A DNA stretch of 64,000 nucleotides from NCBI GenBank assembly GCA_047600665.1, contig JASGKJ010000003.1, positions 1,794,590 to 1,858,589 of the forward strand. The letters are read 5' to 3'. This document shows, piece after piece, positions 40,680-50,076 of this stretch. Source of the stretch: Ferruginibacter sp. (GTDB lineage: Bacteria; Bacteroidota; Bacteroidia; Chitinophagales; Chitinophagaceae). How positions within the stretch are numbered: position 1 is the first letter of the stretch; each line of letters starts with the position of its first letter. Both the position numbers and the translations under genes were made by a program. Under the pieces are notes generated by a model, which saw only the letters and a list, made by a program, of their open reading frames with translations, ran no database searches and had not been told where the DNA came from.

Positions 40680-41696
40680 ATGAGCCCAATACAGAAAGCA
40701 TTGCAGCAGCGGATACTGATTATAGATGGCGCCATGGGCACCATGATACAGCGGCATAAACCAACCGAAGCAACTTACAGGGGCGAAAGATTTAAAGACT
40801 GGCCAATAGATGTAAAAAACAACAGTGATATACTAAATCTTACCCAGCCTCAGATAATTGAAGGCATTCACCGGGAGTACCTGGAAGCAGGTGCTGATAT
40901 CATTGAGACAAACACTTTTGCTGCTACCACCATTGCGCAGGAAGATTTTAAGCTGGAAGCATTTGTACATGAGCTGAACGTGGAAGGTGCCCGTATTGCA
41001 CGCCGTGCAGCCGATGCTTATACCGCAAAGGATCCATCTAAGCCCCGCTTTGTGGCAGGTGCCATTGGGCCATTAAACCGAACATTGAGTTTATCCCCGG
41101 ATGTAAACAATCCCGGTTACCGTGCTGTAACATTTGATGAAGTGGCCAAAGCATACAAAGAACAAATAAAAGGGCTGGTAGAAGGTGGTGTAGATGTTTT
41201 ATTAATTGAAACCATCTTTGATACCCTTAATGCAAAAGCTGCCATCTATGCAGCAAAAAATTTCTTCAGGGAAAATAATATACCGGAACTGCCCATTATG
41301 ATCAGTGGTACCATCACTGATGCATCAGGCAGAACACTGAGTGGTCAAACGCTGGAAGCATTTTATACATCCGTTGCACATGCAAACCCACTAAGTGTAG
41401 GGCTGAATTGTGCATTGGGTGCAAACGAAATGCGGCCGCATATTGAGGAGCTGTCGCAAATAGCAGCCTGCCATGTATCTGCTTATCCAAATGCCGGCTT
41501 GCCCAATGCTATGGGTGAATATGATGAACAACCGCATGAAACAGCACATATACTTGAAGGATGGGCAAAAGAAGGATTCTTGAACATTGTTGGTGGCTGC
41601 TGCGGCACCACGCCGGATCATATAAAACATATTGCAGAAGAAGTAAGCAAATTCAAACCGAGAGAACTGCCCCTGATGGAAAAGGAATTAATTTAA
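40680..41696 (+). CDS. metH: Methionine synthase, N-terminal homocysteine-binding module
   Basis: [46 protein letters not shown] (Zn ligands). Confidence 0.96.
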
Positions 41697-41733
41697 CCAC
41701 AAAGGGCACTAAGAAAGCATACAAAGTTCACAA
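41696..41733 (+). repeat. Left arm of a 38-bp imperfect inverted repeat flanking the GxxExxY gene
   Basis: ACCACAAAGGGCACTAAGAAAGCATACAAAGTTCACAA matches the reverse complement of 42111-42148 at 31/38 positions with no gaps. Confidence 0.85.
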
Positions 41734-42116
41734 TGTTTACTGAAAATGACATAGCGAAGATTGTGTTTGAAGCAGGACTGAAAGTTCACAAAGCATTAGG
41801 CCCCGGGTTATTAGAAAGTGCTTATGAAGAGTGCTTATGTTTCGAGTTATCAAAAACAGGCTTATTTATAGAAAGGCAAAAATGTCTTCCGCTGATTTAT
41901 GAAGATATTAAAATGGAGGCTGGATACCGTGCTGATTTTATGATTGAAAACAAATTTATTGTTGAGATAAAAGCGATTGAAACATTAGCGGATATACATC
42001 TTGCTCAAATATTAACTTATTTGAAATTATCGAATTGCAAACTGGGTTTATTAATAAATTTTAATGTATTACTTTTTAAAGATGGGGTAAAAAGAGTTAT
42101 CAATGGTTCTTTGTGA
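41733..42116 (+). CDS. GxxExxY protein (PD-(D/E)XK-like fold)
   Basis: LGPGLLESAYEECL, RADFMIENKFIVEIKA, AQILTYLK...GLLINFN; 127 aa. Confidence 0.95.
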   Translation: MFTENDIAKIVFEAGLKVHKALGPGLLESAYEECLCFELSKTGLFIERQKCLPLIYEDIKMEAGYRADFMIENKFIVEIKAIETLADIHLAQILTYLKLSNCKLGLLINFNVLLFKDGVKRVINGSL

Positions 42117-42148
42117 ACCTTGTGTACTTACTTTGTGTCCTTAGTGGT
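42111..42148 (-). repeat. Right arm of the inverted repeat flanking the GxxExxY gene
   Basis: TTGTGAACCTTGTGTACTTACTTTGTGTCCTTAGTGGT; overlaps the gene's TGA stop codon. Confidence 0.85.
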
Positions 42149-42155
42149 AAAAAAA

Positions 42156-44816
42156 ATGAGCACTATAAAACCATACTTACGTCTCAGCGGTCTTGAACCT
42201 TTGGTCATCAGGCCCGAAACCAATTTTGTAAATGTTGGTGAGCGTACCAATGTAACCGGCAGTAAAAAATTTGCACGGCTTATTAAGGAGAACAAATACG
42301 AAGAAGCATTGAGTGTTGCACGGCAACAGGTGGAAAGCGGCGCACAGGTGATCGATGTGAACATGGACGATGCTTTGCTGGATGGCGTGAAAGCAATGAC
42401 CACTTTCCTCAACCTGCTGCAAAGCGAACCGGACATTGCCAAGATACCGGTGATGATCGACTCATCCAAGTTCGAGATCATTGAAGCCGGGTTGAAATGT
42501 GTGCAGGGCAAATGCATTGTAAACTCCATCTCCATGAAAGAGGGAGAAGCAAAATTTATTGAACAGGCATTTATCTGCCGCAGCTATGGCGCTGCTGTTA
42601 TTGTAATGGCCTTTGATGAAAAAGGACAGGCGGATACAAAAGACCGCAAAGTGGAAATTTGTCACCGGGCTTATAAGATCCTTACAGAACAGGTAGGCTT
42701 TCCACCGCAGGATATTATTTTTGACCCTAACATATTTGCCGTAGCTACCGGTTTGGAAGAACACAATAACTACGGCGTTGATTTTATAGAAGCTACAAGA
42801 GAGATAAAACAACTGATGCCGCTTACTAAAATAAGTGGTGGTGTAAGTAATTTATCTTTTTCTTTCCGCGGCAATGATCATGTAAGGGAAGCTATGCACA
42901 GCGTGTTTCTTTACTACACCATCAAAGCTGGTATGGATATGGGCATTGTAAATGCCGGACAGCTGGTTGTATATGATGAGATAGAACCTGCGTTGAGAAA
43001 TTTATGTGAAGATGTGATCCTTAACCGTAACAATGATAATAACGAGGCTACGGAAAAACTAATTGCATTTGCAGAAACAGTAAAAGCAAAAGGCAAAACA
43101 GAAGTAAAAGATGAAGCCTGGCGAAACCTGCCGGTTGAAAAACGTTTGGCGCACTCACTCGTAAATGGCATTACAGATTATATCGATATAGATACAGAAG
43201 AAGTAAGGCAAAAATCTGCAAGACCCTTAGATGTGATCGAAGGCCCGCTGATGGATGGCATGAACATCGTAGGTGATCTCTTCGGCAGCGGTAAAATGTT
43301 TTTACCCCAGGTGGTAAAGAGTGCCCGTGTGATGAAGAAAAGTGTGGCGTACTTACAACCCTTTATTGAAGCTGAAAAACAGGAAGCATCCAATGCACCC
43401 ACCGTTTTACTGGCAACAGTAAAAGGTGATGTACATGATATCGGTAAAAATATTGTGGGCGTGGTGCTGGGTTGTAATGGTTACACCGTAGTTGACCTGG
43501 GTGTGATGGTGCCCGCTGATAAAATTTTAGAAGAAGCAAAAAAATGTAATGCTGCTATTATTGGTTTATCAGGATTGATCACACCATCGCTGGATGAAAT
43601 GGTGCATGTAGCACACGAAATGAAACGCCGGGAAATGAACCTGCCGTTGCTGATTGGTGGTGCCACTACTTCCCGTATGCATACAGCGGTAAAGATCGCA
43701 CCACAATATGATAAAGGCGTGGTGCATGTACTGGATGCAAGCCGCAGCGTAACCGTGGTAAGCAGTTTATTAAGCAATGAACAGAAAGCAGATTTTCTTG
43801 CCGGTATAAAAACGGAATACACAAAGCTGGCAGATGATTTCAATAATAAAAAAGCCGTTAAGCAATTTTTACCATTTGCAGCAGCGCAACAAAATACAGT
43901 AAAAATTAACTGGGAAAATTTCAAACCTGTTCAGCCAACTTTTACAGGCGTTAAAGTTTTTGATAATTATTCTTTACAGGAAATAGCAAACTATATTGAC
44001 TGGCAGCCGTTCTTTATTGCATGGGAACTGCATGGAAAATTCCCACAAATATTAAGCGATGAAAAGGTGGGTGCAGAAGCCACCAAACTGTACAATGACG
44101 CCAACATCCTGCTTAAAAAGATCATTGATGAAAAATGGCTGACCGCCAAAGGCACGGTTGGTTTTTGGGAAGCGAAGAAAACAGCACCGGATTCTGTACA
44201 GGTAAAAGATGGTGACTCAACCATCAAATTAGAATTTTTAAGACAGCAGGTAAAGAAAGCTGCTGACCAGCCCAACATATCGCTTGCTGATTTTATCAGC
44301 CCTGGCGGCAACGACTATATGGGCGCTTTCTCTGTAACGATACAGGGCATCGATCAGCATATTAAAAACTTTGAAGCGGCCCATGATGATTACAACAAGA
44401 TCATCCTGCAGGCGCTGGCCGACCGTTTTGCAGAAGCATTTGCAGAATGCCTGCATGAAAAGACAAGAAAAGAGTACTGGGGCTACGACAAAGCAGAAGC
44501 ACTCTCCAATGAACAATTGATAAAAGAAGAGTATGCAGGCATCCGTCCTGCACCAGGCTATCCCGCCTGCCCCGATCATACAGAAAAATACAAGCTGTTC
44601 AATTTACTGGGCGGCGAAGCAAATACGGGTATCCATCTTACTGAAAGCTTAGCGATGTATCCGGCATCTTCTGTTTGCGGCTGGTATTTTGCAAATCCTG
44701 AAAGTAAATATTTTGGTGTGGGTAAAATTGATAAGGACCAGCTGGAAGACTACGCTAAACGAAAGGAGATGGATATTGATGAAGTAACGAGGTGGCTAAG
44801 GCCGATACTGGAATAA
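42156..44816 (+). CDS. metH: Methionine synthase, pterin-binding, B12-binding and reactivation module
   Basis: [26 protein letters not shown] (B12 His ligand), [22 protein letters not shown]. Start moved to MSTIKP. Confidence 0.97.
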
Positions 44817-44904
44817 CAAACCGGTTTCCCGCAATTGTTTTGCCGCAAGTTTATTTGTACAGAAAAGCACTGATTGTCAAGGTAAACTTGTACAAGGAGT
44901 TGCG

Positions 44905-44912
44905 TATATTTG
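44905..44912 (+). promoter_or_regulatory. -7 element (TATATTTG) heading the cassette array (Pc-like promoter)
   Basis: TAnnTTTG match 3 nt upstream of the first GTT half-site. Confidence 0.7.
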
Positions 44913-44915
44913 AGA

Positions 44916-44927
44916 GTTGGTGGCAAT
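44916..44927 (+). repeat. Lone right half-site GTTGGTGGCAAT (attI-like entry point of cassette 1)
   Basis: Identical to 45789-45800, but no left arm or central repeat lies upstream. Confidence 0.7.
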
Positions 44928-44977
44928 ATTAAAAGAGCTTACGTTTCCAAAACTCAGTTGACAAAAAACGTTACAGT

Positions 44978-45586
44978 GTGACGCAGATCTTCAGCAAAAG
45001 CAAACTTAATCGCATGTTTCGCTTAGGTTATCGACTTGCCTTCGAGACAACAAAACCCAAAAAGAAAGATTGGGAAGACATTTATTCGCTTTGGCTGTGT
45101 GCGGCTAAAGGTGGACATAAAAGAGCGCAATTTTATTTGGGCACTTGCTATGACAATGGGTATGGGACAGAGAAAAATTTGCAATTAGCATTTGAGTGGT
45201 ACTTAAAAGCTGCAAAGACTGGACATAGAGACGCTCAATACAATGTTGGTTTTTTCTTTTCTACTGATGAACTTGGTATTAAGAACGACAAGAAAAAAGT
45301 ATTTTGGTATTCTAAAGCCGCAGAAGCTGGACTTATTGATGCACAAAGAGATTTAGGTTATTCATATTTCTATGGAGAAGGAATTAAGAAAGATGAAACG
45401 AAAGCTGTTTATTGGTATAAAAAGGCTGCATCAAAAAACGACGAAAAGGCACTTTACAATTTAGGACTTTGCTACAAACACGGTGACGGGGTTAATCAAT
45501 CAAATCGCTGGACGAAATATTACTTTGAACAAGCAAAAAAGTTTGGACATAAAGAAGCGGCAAAGGAATTACGAAAATTAGGCTGA
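44978..45586 (+). CDS. Cassette 1: Sel1-like repeat protein
   Basis: Repeated AQFYLGTCYDNGYG, AQRDLGYSYFYGEG and ALYNLGLCYKHGDG. GTG start; a later ATG at 45014 is possible. Confidence 0.9.
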   Translation: MTQIFSKSKLNRMFRLGYRLAFETTKPKKKDWEDIYSLWLCAAKGGHKRAQFYLGTCYDNGYGTEKNLQLAFEWYLKAAKTGHRDAQYNVGFFFSTDELGIKNDKKKVFWYSKAAEAGLIDAQRDLGYSYFYGEGIKKDETKAVYWYKKAASKNDEKALYNLGLCYKHGDGVNQSNRWTKYYFEQAKKFGHKEAAKELRKLG

Positions 45587-45593
45587 CGACAAT

Positions 45594-45800
45594 ACTGCCA
45601 CCAACAAACGGTTTTGCGCAAGTGTGGCTGGACAAACTAATCTTCAGCCTTACTTCGTTACTCAGCTTCAGTTTCGGGCGGACACAGCAACTTTGGGCAT
45701 TAGTTCTTACCTTCAGCTAAACAAAACTATCAGCGGTTGTTCCGGGCGGACGCAATTCTAATTCCACACCTGCAGCAAAGCCGCCAACGTTGGTGGCAAT
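45594..45800 (+). repeat. attC-like repeat 1
   Basis: TGCCACCAAC (45596) / GTTGGTGGCA (45789) pair perfectly. Inner arms GGTTTTGCGCAAGTGTGG / CCACACCTGCAGCAAAGCC pair with one bulged base. Spacers are 4 and 6 nt. Confidence 0.85.
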
Positions 45801-45818
45801 TATAAACGACCCTTCATT

Positions 45819-46493
45819 TTGAAAAATATTGTTAGACAAAACCTGTTAGTCGGATTTCTAATTTCACTACTTTCTTGTGGTCAGACAAATAAGTTTGATG
45901 ACAAGGATACCGTCAATCACAAAATAACTTCAACAAATCAATTCCCGTTTCAAAAGGCAAAAGATAAATACAACGAACTCCTAGATATCAAAGGCAGCTA
46001 CAATTATATTTCGGTTGACACAGCATCTATTAAATTACTGACTGAAAATGAAATTACAGGTTTAGACAATTTTGATTGTTACAGATTTACAATATTTAAT
46101 GGAGCCCATTACGAATATAATAGTGGACAAATCATTTGCATTGGGTTGGTTTCCAAATCAGACACCAACGACCTTAGGATTTTATTTCCAAAAGACTACA
46201 CAAAAAGTTCTTTAAATTTCTATGACCCATTCTTAAACAGTAAAATTTCTGACAGAAAGAATTATTGTACAAAACTTTCAAACCTGATAAACTATTTCAC
46301 ATCGTATCAAATAAAAAATATTGAATACAGTTATTTGGACGCCAACAATTTGCTGACAGTTATTTCTAAACATACAGTTCAGACTTACGACATAGTTTCT
46401 AAAAAGAATACATCATTTTTACAATCAGACACAATCCAATTTATATTTAGCGGAGATACATTGAAATCGTTTTTACAAGTCAGTGGAAAATAA
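45819..46493 (+). CDS. Cassette 2: hypothetical lipoprotein
   Basis: TTG start, lipobox LLSC; no family motif recognised. Confidence 0.75.
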   Translation: MKNIVRQNLLVGFLISLLSCGQTNKFDDKDTVNHKITSTNQFPFQKAKDKYNELLDIKGSYNYISVDTASIKLLTENEITGLDNFDCYRFTIFNGAHYEYNSGQIICIGLVSKSDTNDLRILFPKDYTKSSLNFYDPFLNSKISDRKNYCTKLSNLINYFTSYQIKNIEYSYLDANNLLTVISKHTVQTYDIVSKKNTSFLQSDTIQFIFSGDTLKSFLQVSGK

Positions 46494-46699
46494 CTGCAAC
46501 CAACAAAAGGTTTGCCGCAAGGCTGGCGGACGTAATAACAATCGGCAGTTGTACTATTATCAGCTAATATCGGGCTTGACCGAATTCTATTTGGCTTTTA
46601 GTTGTTAACTTCAACATCGGTTTTTCAATCGGCTTCAGTTGCCGGGCAGACAGTTATAAAATATCAGCCCTGCGGCAAGCCTCGAACGTTGTGTGTAAC
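46493..46699 (+). repeat. attC-like repeat 2
   Basis: ACTGCAACCAAC-aaaa-GGTTTGCCGCAAGGCTG ... CAGCCCTGCGGCAAGCC-tcgaac-GTTGTGTGTAAC. Confidence 0.85.
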
Positions 46700-46702
46700 T
46701 TT

Positions 46703-47239
46703 ATGAAGACCTTCAAATCAAACATATGCATTTACATTAGTTTAACCTTTCTTCTGTTGACATGGCTTTTTGTTGGAATATTTAGAGACAGTGAGTTTTA
46801 CGAACCCTCAATATTTACAAAGTATAGACCGACATTTAAGGTATTTTTTTACACTCCAATTGGCGAATCAGACTTAGAAATGGAAGAACTTTCCACTAGT
46901 AAGCAAAGTGAGGAAATAGCATTTCAAGAATTCGTTATTAAACAACATCAACAATATAACAGTGATTCAAAACTTTGGTATTTACCCTTTATTTTAATCC
47001 AGTTGACTCTGACATTTTTATGTTTTGGCATTTTCAAAAACTGGACTAACCTGACTTACAAAAATTGGCAACTGGCAGTACATTTCTTAATCAATATAAT
47101 AATCACCACTGCTGGACTTGCATTTTTATTATCATTTGACAAAACCATAATTACAATGCTCATAATAGTCATTATTCTAGCAGCCAATTGCTGGGCAATA
47201 ATTTTGCTTACAAAGCGAAGGTTAAGAATAACAACTTAG
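46703..47239 (+). CDS. Cassette 3: hypothetical integral membrane protein (~4 TM)
   Basis: Four hydrophobic segments. Start set to ATG 46703, just after the GTT site. Confidence 0.75.
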   Translation: MKTFKSNICIYISLTFLLLTWLFVGIFRDSEFYEPSIFTKYRPTFKVFFYTPIGESDLEMEELSTSKQSEEIAFQEFVIKQHQQYNSDSKLWYLPFILIQLTLTFLCFGIFKNWTNLTYKNWQLAVHFLINIIITTAGLAFLLSFDKTIITMLIIVIILAANCWAIILLTKRRLRITT

Positions 47240-47267
47240 ATTTTGTAATTACGGACATTCAACAAAA

Positions 47268-47470
47268 GCTACACATAACATTAGTTTTTATGCAAGTTGA
47301 GCATGATCAGCAACATCAGCCAATTGCAAAGCCTAGCAGTGCCTCAGGAGGAACAAACCACTTTGAGCTTTAGTTCTTAATTTCAATATCAGTTTTTCAA
47401 CCGGCAGCCGCTGTGGGCAGATGGATCCCAACCGGGATAAGGCCATACCCTTTATGCGCAAGCCATTTGA
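47268..47470 (+). repeat. attC-like repeat 3 (degenerate, right GTT lost)
   Basis: Starts GCTACACATAAC. The core AGTTCTTAATTTCAATATCAGTTTTTCAACCGGC matches repeat 2 at 29/34. It ends GCGCAAGCC with no GTT. Confidence 0.7.
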
Positions 47471-47532
47471 TTTCCTTCTAATAACGACAAAAATATTTGA
47501 CTGAATTTGTCTGCACATACCCGAAGTATTTT

Positions 47533-47925
47533 ATGAAAGTAACCTTAAGATTTAAAATTTTATCTAGCCTTTGGAGTGCTGTTATTTCCATGTTACTTTT
47601 AGCGTGTAATTCGCCGCATGATAAAATGATTGATACAATGAGCAAACAATCCTATTGTTTAGAAAAGGTTACTGATTCTGACAGTTCTATTTTTCTTCCT
47701 GGTGCCCAATTACATCTAAAGCCTGACAATTCTTTTTTTGTGTCAAGCGAGGACAATCAATTGTCAAAAATAACTGGTGAGTGGGACTTGTGTTGTTCGG
47801 GCTCAGGCTACGGTAATTATGTATTTAAGATAAAAGGATTACCTGAATGGACACAAGCGAATACAGATTTCTTTGTTTTAAGATACGGAAGGAAAATCAG
47901 ACTGTTTTTCAAAATGTGCAACTAG
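47533..47925 (+). CDS. Cassette 4: hypothetical lipoprotein
   Basis: Lipobox LLAC. Start set to MKVTLRF. Confidence 0.7.
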   Translation: MKVTLRFKILSSLWSAVISMLLLACNSPHDKMIDTMSKQSYCLEKVTDSDSSIFLPGAQLHLKPDNSFFVSSEDNQLSKITGEWDLCCSGSGYGNYVFKIKGLPEWTQANTDFFVLRYGRKIRLFFKMCN

Positions 47926-47934
47926 ACTTTGACG

Positions 47935-48146
47935 ACTGCGTACAACAGTTGGTTTGGCAATAGACTGGCAGGACGTTGCCCTGCCCAAGCGGCAGTAATT
48001 CTATTTGGCTTTTGTGCGTGGCTCAACAAGCTACGCAGAACTTTTATTTGTTACCTTCAATATCAGCAATTTATTGAGCTTCGGTTCCTGGGCTGGATAA
48101 GCAATGAATATCCTGCCTTCGGCAATACTCGGTCGTTGCAGACAAT
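47935..48146 (+). repeat. attC-like repeat 4
   Basis: ACTGCGTACAAC-agtt-GGTTTGGCAAT...GGCAGGA ... TCCTGCC-TTCGGCAATAC-tcggtc-GTTGCAGACAAT. Shares the 17-mer AATTCTATTTGGCTTTT with repeat 2. Confidence 0.8.
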
Positions 48147-48174
48147 TTTTCTAAGCATTATTAATTAACTATCT

Positions 48175-48651
48175 ATGAAAAAAATATCACTTAGTTCATT
48201 AGTCATAACACTTATTAGCTTTTCAGTCATACTTTTTATTACGACTGGTTGCAAAACATCAAAGGCTAATGTTTCCGGCAGCATGTCCAAAAATCAACTG
48301 TTGATTGAAAAAACATGGCAGGTAGATAAACTTTATCATGTTATTTCCGGGCAATATTCTTCTTATACAAGGGGAGGGCCGAATACCACCGGCATTAATT
48401 ATGATCTGCTTCGGTTCACATTTAATGCTGACGGAACGGGTAAGCATATTGGTCCTGATAATAAAACTTATTACTTTAGCTGGAAACTTAATCCAGGTGA
48501 CAGCCGGAGTTTACTCTTAACGAATAATGGACGAACTGATAGCTGGGATATGTTAGAGATTGCAGGTGACTATTTACATGCTGCAGCAAACTTAAACATC
48601 AACGGAGACACCAACAACTTAGAAGTATTCAGGTTAATACAGGTTAAATAA
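48175..48651 (+). CDS. Cassette 5: lipoprotein with a lipocalin-like beta-barrel (tentative)
   Basis: Lipobox TTGC; LLIEKTWQV...FTFNADGTG...FSWKL pattern. Confidence 0.7.
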   Translation: MKKISLSSLVITLISFSVILFITTGCKTSKANVSGSMSKNQLLIEKTWQVDKLYHVISGQYSSYTRGGPNTTGINYDLLRFTFNADGTGKHIGPDNKTYYFSWKLNPGDSRSLLLTNNGRTDSWDMLEIAGDYLHAAANLNINGDTNNLEVFRLIQVK

Positions 48652-48706
48652 CAACAAAACTGCTTGCGATATTGGATGAGTTAGGGTCAAACTATTAAAC
48701 ACGCTG

Positions 48707-49285
48707 ATGAAAAAAGCATTTTTTATATCAATCTTTACGCTGTTTGCCGGCATTTTATTTGGACAGCTAAAGAGTCCGGTAAGAGAATTATTCTTTGGAA
48801 TTAATTTGAATGCTTCCCGTAAAGCAATTTACAATCAGTTAGCTTCGGATAAACGCTTCTTTCAAAAAGGCTATATTGAAACTGATAGCCTATCGCCTTT
48901 TTATCATGGAGAATTTCATGGTTTAAGCTTTGATAAAGGATTGGTTGAGGCAAAACCAGATTCTATTGAAATTAGCCTGAATTGGTTAAAAATTAGCAGG
49001 CTGGTGAAAAATGGAGAGCACGAAACCATCAATAACTTAATATTTTTTTCTAAATACTATTACAGCTCGAATGATATCGCAAAAAAGGAATATCAACAGA
49101 TAATTGATTTAGTATCCAGGAAAAATTCTGATACATCTCATCAAGAAAGATATATTCATTTTCCTGTTCCAATTGAAAGTACAAGGTTTAATTTCCGCAA
49201 ACCAGCCTATCAGCTTGAGATTATGTTATTCAATTTCGATGCTACGCATTCAGAATTACATTTGTCATTTATCCGTAAGGAATAA
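48707..49285 (+). CDS. Cassette 6: hypothetical secreted protein
   Basis: Sec signal peptide MKKAFFISIFTLFAGILFG; no family motif recognised. Confidence 0.7.
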   Translation: MKKAFFISIFTLFAGILFGQLKSPVRELFFGINLNASRKAIYNQLASDKRFFQKGYIETDSLSPFYHGEFHGLSFDKGLVEAKPDSIEISLNWLKISRLVKNGEHETINNLIFFSKYYYSSNDIAKKEYQQIIDLVSRKNSDTSHQERYIHFPVPIESTRFNFRKPAYQLEIMLFNFDATHSELHLSFIRKE

Positions 49286-49398
49286 AATATCATGGGCATA
49301 TGCCTCCTGGCAGGAGTTGTGTAAAATAAACCGGCTTTAATAATCAGGCAGGGAACAAGTTAGCGGCTGTACCACACTTTTCGATTCCAAATGCAGTC

Positions 49399-50076
49399 TC
49401 ACACCATCATCGCTGCTGCCACAAACTGGCTGCAAACACCCACTATTAACCCGGTGTAAATTTCTTTTGGTGTATGATCACTTACGATCATCCTTGAAGT
49501 ACATACGGCACCCGTAATAAAAAAAGCCAGCGCCAGCGGCCAGGTCATCAGCATGCTGTTCAGCAACATGATCACCAGGAAAATACCGATCAGCCCGCCC
49601 ATACCAATGGCATGCATGCTGATCTTGAAATAGATGTTTGCCAGCAGCGCCGCAGAGGAAGCCAGGAAAACACCAAAGGTAAATGCTGTCAAGATGGATG
49701 GTATCTCGGGCTGGTTGCGGAACACGAGATATGTCCAGAAGAAAAAGATACCACAGGCAATGTATGGTATGATGCGTTCTTTCTGTGTGCGGAGAAAAAT
49801 TGATTTATTGAAACCAAGTGCTTTCAGCAATAACACCGTCAGCAATGGAAAAAACACCATGGTGTAACTCACCCTGATAACGATCCACCATTTTTGTGCT
49901 GCACTGTATCCTGTAAAATAGGACGGGTGTATAAAAGTTAAGAACCAGGTAACATATACCGGGATGAAAAGGGGGTGAAAAATATAAGAGAAAAGATGTG
50001 CTAGTATCCTAATTAGCAAAGGTGAACCATCAGCCCTTATTTCCCCGCTTCCATCTATTGACAATTGAGTATTCAC
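49399..50076 (-). CDS. PAP2-like integral membrane protein
   Basis: About 6-7 TM helices; KISMHAIGMGG and SRMIVSDHTPKEIYTG resemble PAP2 motifs 2 and 3. Confidence 0.65.
   Translation of the reverse strand: MNTQLSIDGSGEIRADGSPLLIRILAHLFSYIFHPLFIPVYVTWFLTFIHPSYFTGYSAAQKWWIVIRVSYTMVFFPLLTVLLLKALGFNKSIFLRTQKERIIPYIACGIFFFWTYLVFRNQPEIPSILTAFTFGVFLASSAALLANIYFKISMHAIGMGGLIGIFLVIMLLNSMLMTWPLALAFFITGAVCTSRMIVSDHTPKEIYTGLIVGVCSQFVAAAMMV

Follow-up and report, generated by a model that had tools for sequence, protein, structure and literature searches.

We analyzed a 64-kb stretch of a Ferruginibacter sp. contig (the window, to whose positions all coordinates refer unless a locus is named) and find that its segment 44853–49300 is very probably an integron-type chromosomal array of mobile gene cassettes, with an attI-like leader downstream of metH and no recombinase gene nearby. 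Between metH and a convergent membrane-protein gene, the plus strand carries six small open reading frames (ORFs) with four copies of a ∼207-nt repeat between them (45594–45800, 46493–46699, 47268–47470, and 47935–48146). What defines integrons, the main known system for capturing and stockpiling single genes, is the IntI integrase with its special domain. Our results support the preliminary description of this DNA, made from the sequence alone, in that the array functions like an integron cassette array. It is nevertheless not part of the integron family as currently defined, as the recombinase linked to such arrays is without the domain that defines integrons, its gene points the same way as the cassettes, and the sites are longer than usual and have a conserved modular center. 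Soil and water Bacteroidota appear to harbor in it a gene-capture platform of an undescribed lineage, and we lean slightly toward the wider view that Chitinophagaceae, and probably other Bacteroidota, harbor a separate integron lineage with a co-oriented Xer-like recombinase devoid of the IntI domain, a leader that has additional enzyme-less copies, and long sites folding as the bottom strand.

The preliminary description was built on 12-mers at the cassette ends, all six of which were found in place: GTTGGTGGCAAT at both 44916 and 45789, GTTGTGTGTAAC at 46688, ACTGCCACCAAC at 45594, ACTGCAACCAAC at 46493, and GCTACACATAAC at 47268. It had claimed that the 5′ end of each cassette complements the start of its own 3′ repeat and not that of its neighbor. 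We scored complementarity over the nine variable positions +4 to +12 after the G of GTT, for which the practical maximum is 8 (there is one conserved mismatch position). All three cassettes complemented their own 3′ ends (8/9 for cassette 1 and 7/9 for cassettes 2 and 3), a random pairing having a chance of 0.03 of scoring at least 7/9, and this part of the claim stood; the contrast between own and neighboring repeat, however, was visible within the window only at repeat 2, which paired with itself at 4/9. Repeat 1 (8/9 when self-paired) is uninformative because cassettes 1 and 2 share nearly the same box. With its one discriminating junction, the window alone is suggestive and thin.

Across genomes the comparison gave the result that the preliminary description had anticipated. 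Among 139 triplets of consecutive repeats from 55 loci (n = 137 without the window, with the same result), the nine bases after GTT complemented the left end of the next repeat, i.e., that of their own cassette, at a mean of 7.0 of 9 positions, as compared to 4.0 for the left end of their own repeat and 3.7 for random pairings. The own-cassette score was the higher in 127 cases and the lower in 6, with 6 ties (sign test p = 1.3e-30), and none of 100,000 sign-flip permutations matched the observed difference; right ends did not pair equally well with the left end of their own repeat, for which the score stayed near the random level. On the other side of the junction, positions −8 to −2 before GTT showed an association with the left spacer within the same repeat (Fisher p = 1e-7) but none with that of the next one (p = 0.67). 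Positions −1 to +3 (C-G-T-T) are invariant, +4 to +12 go with the downstream cassette, and −8 to −2 go with the upstream repeat, placing the switch of ownership between −2 and +4, within C-G-T-T. A crossover at G|TT, as had been proposed, is compatible with this location; because C-G-T-T is invariant, the exact bond is not singled out.

The repeat family was searched for with a 23-nt motif from the repeat center, using one genome per species. At least 113 stretches contained the motif, nearly all of them from Chitinophagaceae (Lacibacter, Sediminibacterium, Ferruginibacter, Agriterribacter, Segetibacter, Parafilimonas, Niastella, Terrimonas, and many metagenome-assembled genomes [MAGs]); among viral contigs, the motif search found only two unrelated chance sequences. 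Three array contigs (loci L033, L013, and L120) carry the names Bosea thiooxidans, Microcoleus sp., and Gammaproteobacteria MAGs, probably through mis-binning of Chitinophagaceae contigs. An iterated nhmmer profile identified at least 359 repeat copies in at least 99 loci, with up to 13–14 copies per 8 kb. The copies have the attC architecture R′′-L′′...L′-R′, with AAC in 267 of 292 copies and GTT in 276 of 314. The left end reads NCWRCNNNYAAC, a 4-nt spacer, and then GGTTTGCCGCAAG, and the right end reads CTGCGGCAAGCC, a 6-nt spacer ending in C, and then GTTRNNNGYMAT. Sites are about 180–215 nt long (median 213 nt including flanks, range 179–259), and their R box of 11–12 bp has about 6 freely variable positions.

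The outer ∼35 nt of each window repeat pair with each other on either strand, and in the consensus fold of the family a small internal loop separates the R stem of 11 bp from a bulged L stem of ∼16 bp, the central ∼130 nt having no consensus structure. Nearly all R-box and L-box pairs covary, with several Watson-Crick types and 85–98% of cells paired. Because the R box is long and variable, the hybrid sites present in arrays are largely unpaired in R; restoring the R′ of each cassette, as in a circle, made the predicted fold more stable by about 6 kcal/mol (n = 141, p = 1e-23), and the bottom strand folded better than the top strand in 100 cases versus 41. At two pairs, the bottom strand conserves G.T (135/139 and 132/139) where the top strand has an A.C mismatch, and a third conserved A.C joins R′′ position 5 and R′ position 11 at the outer end of the R box. 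With G.T pairs conserved only in the bottom strand, this asymmetry suggests that the strand opposite to the coding strand of the ORFs would be the one that folds, as in integron attC sites.

The center of the repeat (e.g., 45630–45760 and 46530–46660) contains two or three direct modules of the form ATCAGC...GGGCNGAC, which are kept across genera and could form mini-hairpins of 4–5 bp; shorter site variants (∼145 and ∼180 nt) are without one module. Genes for IS110-family transposases lie within attC-like repeats at three loci (L073 5528–7116, L120 49–1481, and L121 1853–3316), and in L073 the insertion splits one repeat at profile position ∼36–38.

The units that these sites delimit behave as discrete cassettes. 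We delimited 181 of them, with a median unique part of 692 nt. The longest ORF is on the array strand in 164 of 173 cassettes and fills 92% of the cassette unit, preceded by 38 nt and followed by 19 nt. On one Sediminibacterium contig, two cassettes 17 kb apart (L014 6083–6702 and L123 7124–7743) are 100% identical from one GTT to the next, and their upstream sites and downstream cassettes differ. A cassette of L090 is likewise 100% identical to one of L095. Homologous cassettes of Ferruginibacter (L073 2455–3222) and Sediminibacterium (L123 6200–6970), at 84% identity, share the same R′′ box, and the remaining site body of each is of its own host's type, which suggests that site bodies may be homogenized or replaced within a genome. 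Cassette 2 of the window has a homologue (69% amino acid identity) in array L142, where it has different neighbors; the homology begins in R′, and R′′ is identical. These identical cassettes in different arrays, with breaks at GTT, together with the cross-genome pairing pattern, support the proposal that cassettes 2 and 3 of the window were joined as discrete units.

Three side observations concern the cassettes themselves. A 5′ untranslated stretch, GCAATTATAAACGACCCTTCAT, is identical at 22 of 22 positions between the cassette 2 homologue (L142 1–75) and window 45789–45830. Cassettes in L125 14481–18014 and L127 11996–12955 encode MutS_V, SNIPE/T5orf172/MUG113, and Band_7/SHOCT proteins, which look like defense-system components, and L127 also has one multi-gene cassette of 3.6 kb. 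The array containing L014 and L123 (contig CBDIRC010000001.1, 984001–1008000) starts at ∼988.9 kb by a recombinase gene and continues up to 1008 kb without having ended; its length of no less than 19 kb equals that of a sedentary chromosomal integron.

Arrays begin with a characteristic leader. In about 20 of them, an exact 9-nt complement of the first repeat lies 450–1600 nt upstream of it with no repeat before it, at the end of a sequence in which direct repeats ACAATACAAAAnGTATAA are followed by TTGAnnnTCAA, a T-run, and GCGTATATTTAWGW|GTT. This leader is conserved in 18 arrays, including ones directly downstream of a recombinase gene. The leader of the window (44853–44915, plus strand), which aligns with the leaders of 17 other arrays, corresponds to the 3′ ∼65 nt of the full leader, with TGATTGTCA at 44871–44879 as the TTGAnnnTCAA motif and the core GTTGCGTATATTTGAGA at 44899–44915, after which come the junction GTT (44916–44918) and nine bases complementary to the left end of repeat 1 at 8/9. 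A metagenome search with the window's own leader gave no matches. Inside the core, TATATTTG (44905–44912) fits TAnnTTTG, the consensus of the Bacteroidetes −7 promoter box, and is a predicted promoter for the first cassettes; a promoter inside each attC-like site was also considered and was rejected, as TAnnTTTG occurs in just 9 of 209 sites. Downstream of recombinase genes, the leader has two to four of the direct repeats ACAATACAAAAnGTATAA (L014 4723–4932, L125 10949–11130, and L133 10949–11120), which recall DR1 and DR2, the accessory integrase-binding sites of integron attI1. The leader is a functional analogue of an attI site, as in 7 loci it immediately follows the end of the recombinase gene, at the stop codon; it is not known to resemble attI1 in sequence. 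Loci L128 and L129, from two samples, have an identical recombinase and leader and have different first cassettes directly after ...AAGT|GTT, their sequences diverging from GTTG onward.

Full-length leaders are also present without a recombinase gene at several unrelated chromosomal sites (L042, L063, L036, L086, L082, and L039); they reach the position of the recombinase stop codon and sometimes occur twice per genome (L042 and L063). Contig ends often fall inside the leader or shortly past it, as expected of a multi-copy sequence.

The leader also links the arrays to one family of recombinases. At one of the at least 99 loci, L014, a tyrosine recombinase gene lies 210 nt upstream of the leader and is co-oriented with it. 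Its protein is a member of a large family that is well conserved: the best 120 of its database hits are 70–95% identical, and 7545 hits have E < 1e-30. We fetched the DNA around six further family members (L125, L127, L128/L129/L130, L131/L132, L133, and L137), and in 7 of 7 loci (L014, L125, L127, L128/L129, L131, L133, and L137) the order is recombinase, leader, GTT, cassettes, with the recombinase gene upstream of the cassettes and co-oriented with them; L125 has at least eight repeats of the family. ORF clustering across the at least 99 loci identified no common neighboring gene. The two other recombinases among these loci, those of L073 and L087, were rejected as the array enzyme because they are only ∼30% identical to the array-linked family; the former adjoins an IS91 transposase gene, and the latter is truncated.

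The array-linked recombinase conserves the catalytic R, K, HxxR, H, and Y residues, and its best matches are XerA (4a8e, E = 2e-36; also 5hxy) and VchIntIA (2a3v, matched in two pieces). As aligned to 2a3v, its residues 206–233 (28 residues) replace residues 179–246 (68 residues), so that the IntI-specific domain is absent. The integron integrase profile TIGR02249 scores 180–186 bits (cut-off 265), again in two pieces and with profile positions 180–255 missing, and the protein falls below every NCBIfam cut-off, including those for integron integrase, XerC, XerD, and XerA. A structure model of moderate confidence (pLDDT 71.5) matches IntIA and XerA equally and has no extra helix at residues 206–233. 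Family members of ∼400 amino acids have an additional ∼80–100 N-terminal residues with no Pfam match.

A mechanism of the integron kind would account for these arrays. A cassette has a single ORF, or rarely more, on the array strand and, behind it, a recombination site of its own of ∼180–215 nt, in which R′′ (NCWRCNNNYAAC), a spacer, L′′, the center, L′, a second spacer, and C-G follow one another, and it starts with TT and the rest of R′. In the free form, the R ends would pair over 11–12 bp and L′′ and L′ over ∼16 bp with bulges, and the site would fold; a tyrosine recombinase would then cut within C-G-T-T and join the cassette to the leader or to the site of another cassette. In the array, the bases after GTT therefore belong to the next cassette. 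The cassette boundaries, base ownership on both sides of GTT, covariation in both stems, recurrence of the same cassettes between arrays, the leader, and the link of leader and arrays to one recombinase family in other genomes are all observed. From these we infer that the Xer-like recombinase is the probable catalyst, that the folded bottom strand is its likely substrate, as in integrons, and that excision would yield circles.

Some observations weigh against reading the segment as an array of this kind. No tyrosine recombinase is encoded in the 64 kb, so that any activity on this array is hypothetical. The link between recombinase and arrays is guilt by association, and an integrase gene adjoins just 1 of the 13 array starts of the pattern-derived set. 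The recombinase is without the IntI domain that reads extrahelical bases, and because of this absence recombination of a folded single strand is less certain than in integrons. Base ownership is not absolute, as the R′ of the L142 homologue differs at +5 to +7 with R′′ unchanged. A search of sequencing runs for the array or its flank matched none, and circles or rearrangements were not observed. Finally, the array is partly decaying, with no GTT left at repeat 3 and a last unit devoid of a site, and may be inactive in part.

Three other explanations were considered. That the repeats are hairpins of the repetitive extragenic palindromic (REP) or terminator type, or a structured RNA, spread by some other route with coincidental complementarity of their ends, has almost no probability left. 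The repeats are indeed intergenic, abundant, and palindromic at their ends, but such elements should pair within a repeat, and pairing was random within repeats and near-perfect across cassettes. Moreover, whole cassettes move with exact GTT boundaries, wobble pairs are conserved on the strand antisense to the ORFs, and the repeats have no Rfam match. The own-cassette pairing test has already refuted this explanation, in agreement with the statement of the preliminary description that simple hairpins do not predict the pattern. A very unlikely explanation, in our view, is that the array is an ordinary integron remnant, i.e., a cluster of attC sites lacking integron-integrases (CALIN), on which a canonical IntI encoded elsewhere in the 3.2-Mb genome acts. 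The sites, at 180–215 nt with a conserved center, lie beyond the usual range of attC sites (roughly 57–141 nt, with a variable central part). In addition, all seven recombinases adjoining the same leader and repeats are Xer-like and without the IntI extra domain, and no IntI-type gene was found among the 113 stretches fetched. The remnant explanation nonetheless draws strength from the site architecture, the AAC and GTT triplets, and the ownership pattern, all of which are those of attC, and from the lack of a recombinase in the window; IntI genes without detectable attC sites (In0 elements) have also been reported in Bacteroidetes (PMC9024848).

We consider it unlikely, though less so, that the cassettes and the recombinase are as described and that exchange takes place on two strands at double-stranded core sites (L′-spacer-R′, inverted like dif or attI), with the R′′/R′ and L′′/L′ pairing reflecting cruciform extrusion or another constraint. 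The recombinase is Xer-like and has no IntI domain devoted to folded attC; in the consensus, L′ and R′ are arranged much like an inverted pair with a 6-nt spacer between them, and R′′ and L′′ likewise form such a pair; and positions +5 to +7 of R′ are sometimes not inherited with the cassette, as a heteroduplex overlap would allow. However, covariation across 190 nt needs intramolecular pairing, only the bottom strand has G.T pairs at the three conserved positions and it is the better folder of the two strands, and ownership changes sharply between −2 and +4. The Xer fold is itself compatible with folded substrates, since XerCD, which has no IntI domain, recombines a folded single strand in the attP(+) hairpin of CTX phage.

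Many features are shared with integrons. In both, cassettes are mostly single-ORF, on the same strand, and promoterless in appearance; each has its own 3′ site of the form R′′-L′′...L′-R′ with AAC and GTT, the later bases being those of the next cassette. The bottom strand folds better in both, and an attI-like site with direct repeats lies by the recombinase gene. Arrays without a neighboring recombinase, sites homogeneous within a genome, and IS110-family elements inserted in sites are further shared features. The present recombinase, however, has 28 residues where VchIntIA has 68 and falls below the integron-integrase cut-offs, and its gene is transcribed in the direction of the cassettes, whereas the integron integrase gene is divergent, with Pc reading into the array. 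The sites of 180–215 nt contain two or three conserved internal modules, whereas attC centers are not conserved in this manner, and the R box of 11–12 bp, with ∼6 free positions, leaves the R arms of hybrid array sites mostly without pairing. Several loci have the full leader and no recombinase, and the hosts are Chitinophagaceae. Provided that its sites count as attC-like, the window array, with four sites and no tyrosine recombinase within 64 kb, is a CALIN; unlike a typical CALIN, it keeps an attI-like leader.

The other known systems are more distant. Archaeal XerA is among the closest sequence and fold relatives of the array-linked recombinase, but Xer systems, XerCD included, use a single dif site for dimer resolution or for the integration of whole phages and build no cassette arrays with individual sites; the sites described here, ∼200 nt long, in many copies, and flanking cassettes, do not correspond to a single 28-bp dif near the terminus. 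The pdif modules of Acinetobacter plasmids are also discrete gene modules thought to be moved by Xer-type recombinases, but their sites are 28-bp double-stranded XerC/XerD sites in inverted orientation, and they lack the long imperfect palindrome, the AAC/GTT ownership pattern, and the leader. Elements of the IS1111-attC group of the IS110 family target integron attC sites, and the IS110-family transposase genes inside repeats (L073, L120, and L121) are a parallel to them; here, however, the IS110-family elements are passengers in the sites and not builders of arrays.

A full-text literature search, from which subscription journals were outside reach, found no description of such arrays, and an earlier description is possible. 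IntegronFinder 2.0 recorded for Bacteroidetes only In0 elements and one complete integron, in Salinibacter (PMC9024848). Smyshlyaev et al. found that the IntI insertion is not fully conserved in an "integron-like" subgroup of recombinases (PMC8138268), and work on how IntI arose from Xer-like enzymes raises the question of how far the mechanism depends on the IntI domain (PMC4792948). If our reading is true, the arrays would show how far it does: capture of cassettes through folded DNA would not need this domain, or would have arisen twice, or the present system would lie near the state from which integrons descend. Such arrays would escape standard integron finders, which would fit the reported scarcity of integrons in Bacteroidota. 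They would also mean that soil and freshwater Bacteroidota hold a large and hidden stock of mobile genes, account for the systematic breaks in assemblies of these genomes, and offer a second, comparable experimental system for folded-DNA recombination.

Within the window, all array features are on the plus strand. Cassette 1 (44917–45789) consists of an ORF for a Sel1-repeat protein (44978–45586; Pfam Sel1, 1.6e-31) and its own attC-like site, with R′′ at 45594–45605, L′′ at 45610–45628, L′ at 45764–45782, and the G of GTT at 45789 (profile E = 6.7e-48); a stem of ∼35 bp is predicted for this site on both strands. Cassette 2 (45790–46688) has an ORF for a lipoprotein-like protein of no known family (45819–46493) and an attC-like site with R′′ at 46493–46504, L′′ at 46509–46525, L′ at 46665–46681, and the G at 46688 (profile E = 1.3e-61). 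Cassette 3 (46689–47470) encodes a membrane protein of no known family (46691–47239) and ends in the site at 47268–47470 (E = 2.2e-27), the decayed right end of which has TTT (47471–47473) in place of the expected GTT. Cassette 4 (47471–48135), with an ill-defined 5′ end, comprises an ORF (47497–47925) and an attC-like site with R′′ at 47935–47946 and the G of GTT at 48135 (E = 1.5e-34). Its predicted start, GTTGTACGCAGT, is absent from the window except as its own complement, and its actual start mismatches the left end of repeat 4. A terminal unit (48136–49300), which begins with TTGCAGACAAT and contains ORFs at 48175–48651 and 48707–49285, has no 3′ attC-like site; downstream of it no ATTGTCTGCAAC-like end was found, and the profile search of the window gave no repeat match past 48153. 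The array stops before the convergent membrane-protein gene (49399–50076, minus strand). Of the six cassette proteins, searched against Pfam, NCBIfam, and PADLOC/defense-system families, only the Sel1 repeats were recognized. An Rfam search gave no family match except one tRNA, and cassette 5 and rpoN of the window are not on record in the assembly index. The GC content is 0.36 over the array versus 0.42 in its flanks.

Upstream, metH is a housekeeping gene outside the element, and the ORF abutting the array (42120–44816, plus strand) encodes the C-terminal part of methionine synthase (NCBIfam NF007024, 1506 bits). Two metagenome relatives, L140 and L141 (73% nucleotide identity), have the same metH end, ...ATA YTG GAA TAA, which marks the metH end of the window as native, and have no array downstream. 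These relatives were rejected as an empty site from which to read the insertion boundaries, being too distant (73% identity) and lacking downstream synteny. Directly after the metH stop codon, and including the native stop region as its first bases, lies a remnant resembling the left half of an attC site (44807–44852, plus strand), which reads ACTGGAATAAC AAACC GGTTTCCCGCAA TTG TTTTGCCGCAAG and has two tandem L′′-like boxes; it was recognized by a 63% match to the repeat family and by a pattern match. The remnant is fused to the 3′ part of the leader, a junction predicted by no recombination product that we could think of. The metH gene is split into two ORFs (40680–44816, covering profile positions 12–343 and 334–1229), between which sits a PD-(D/E)XK_3 (PF13366) gene (41733–42116); the gap between the two ORFs is 477 nt in the window versus 240 nt in two metagenome relatives.

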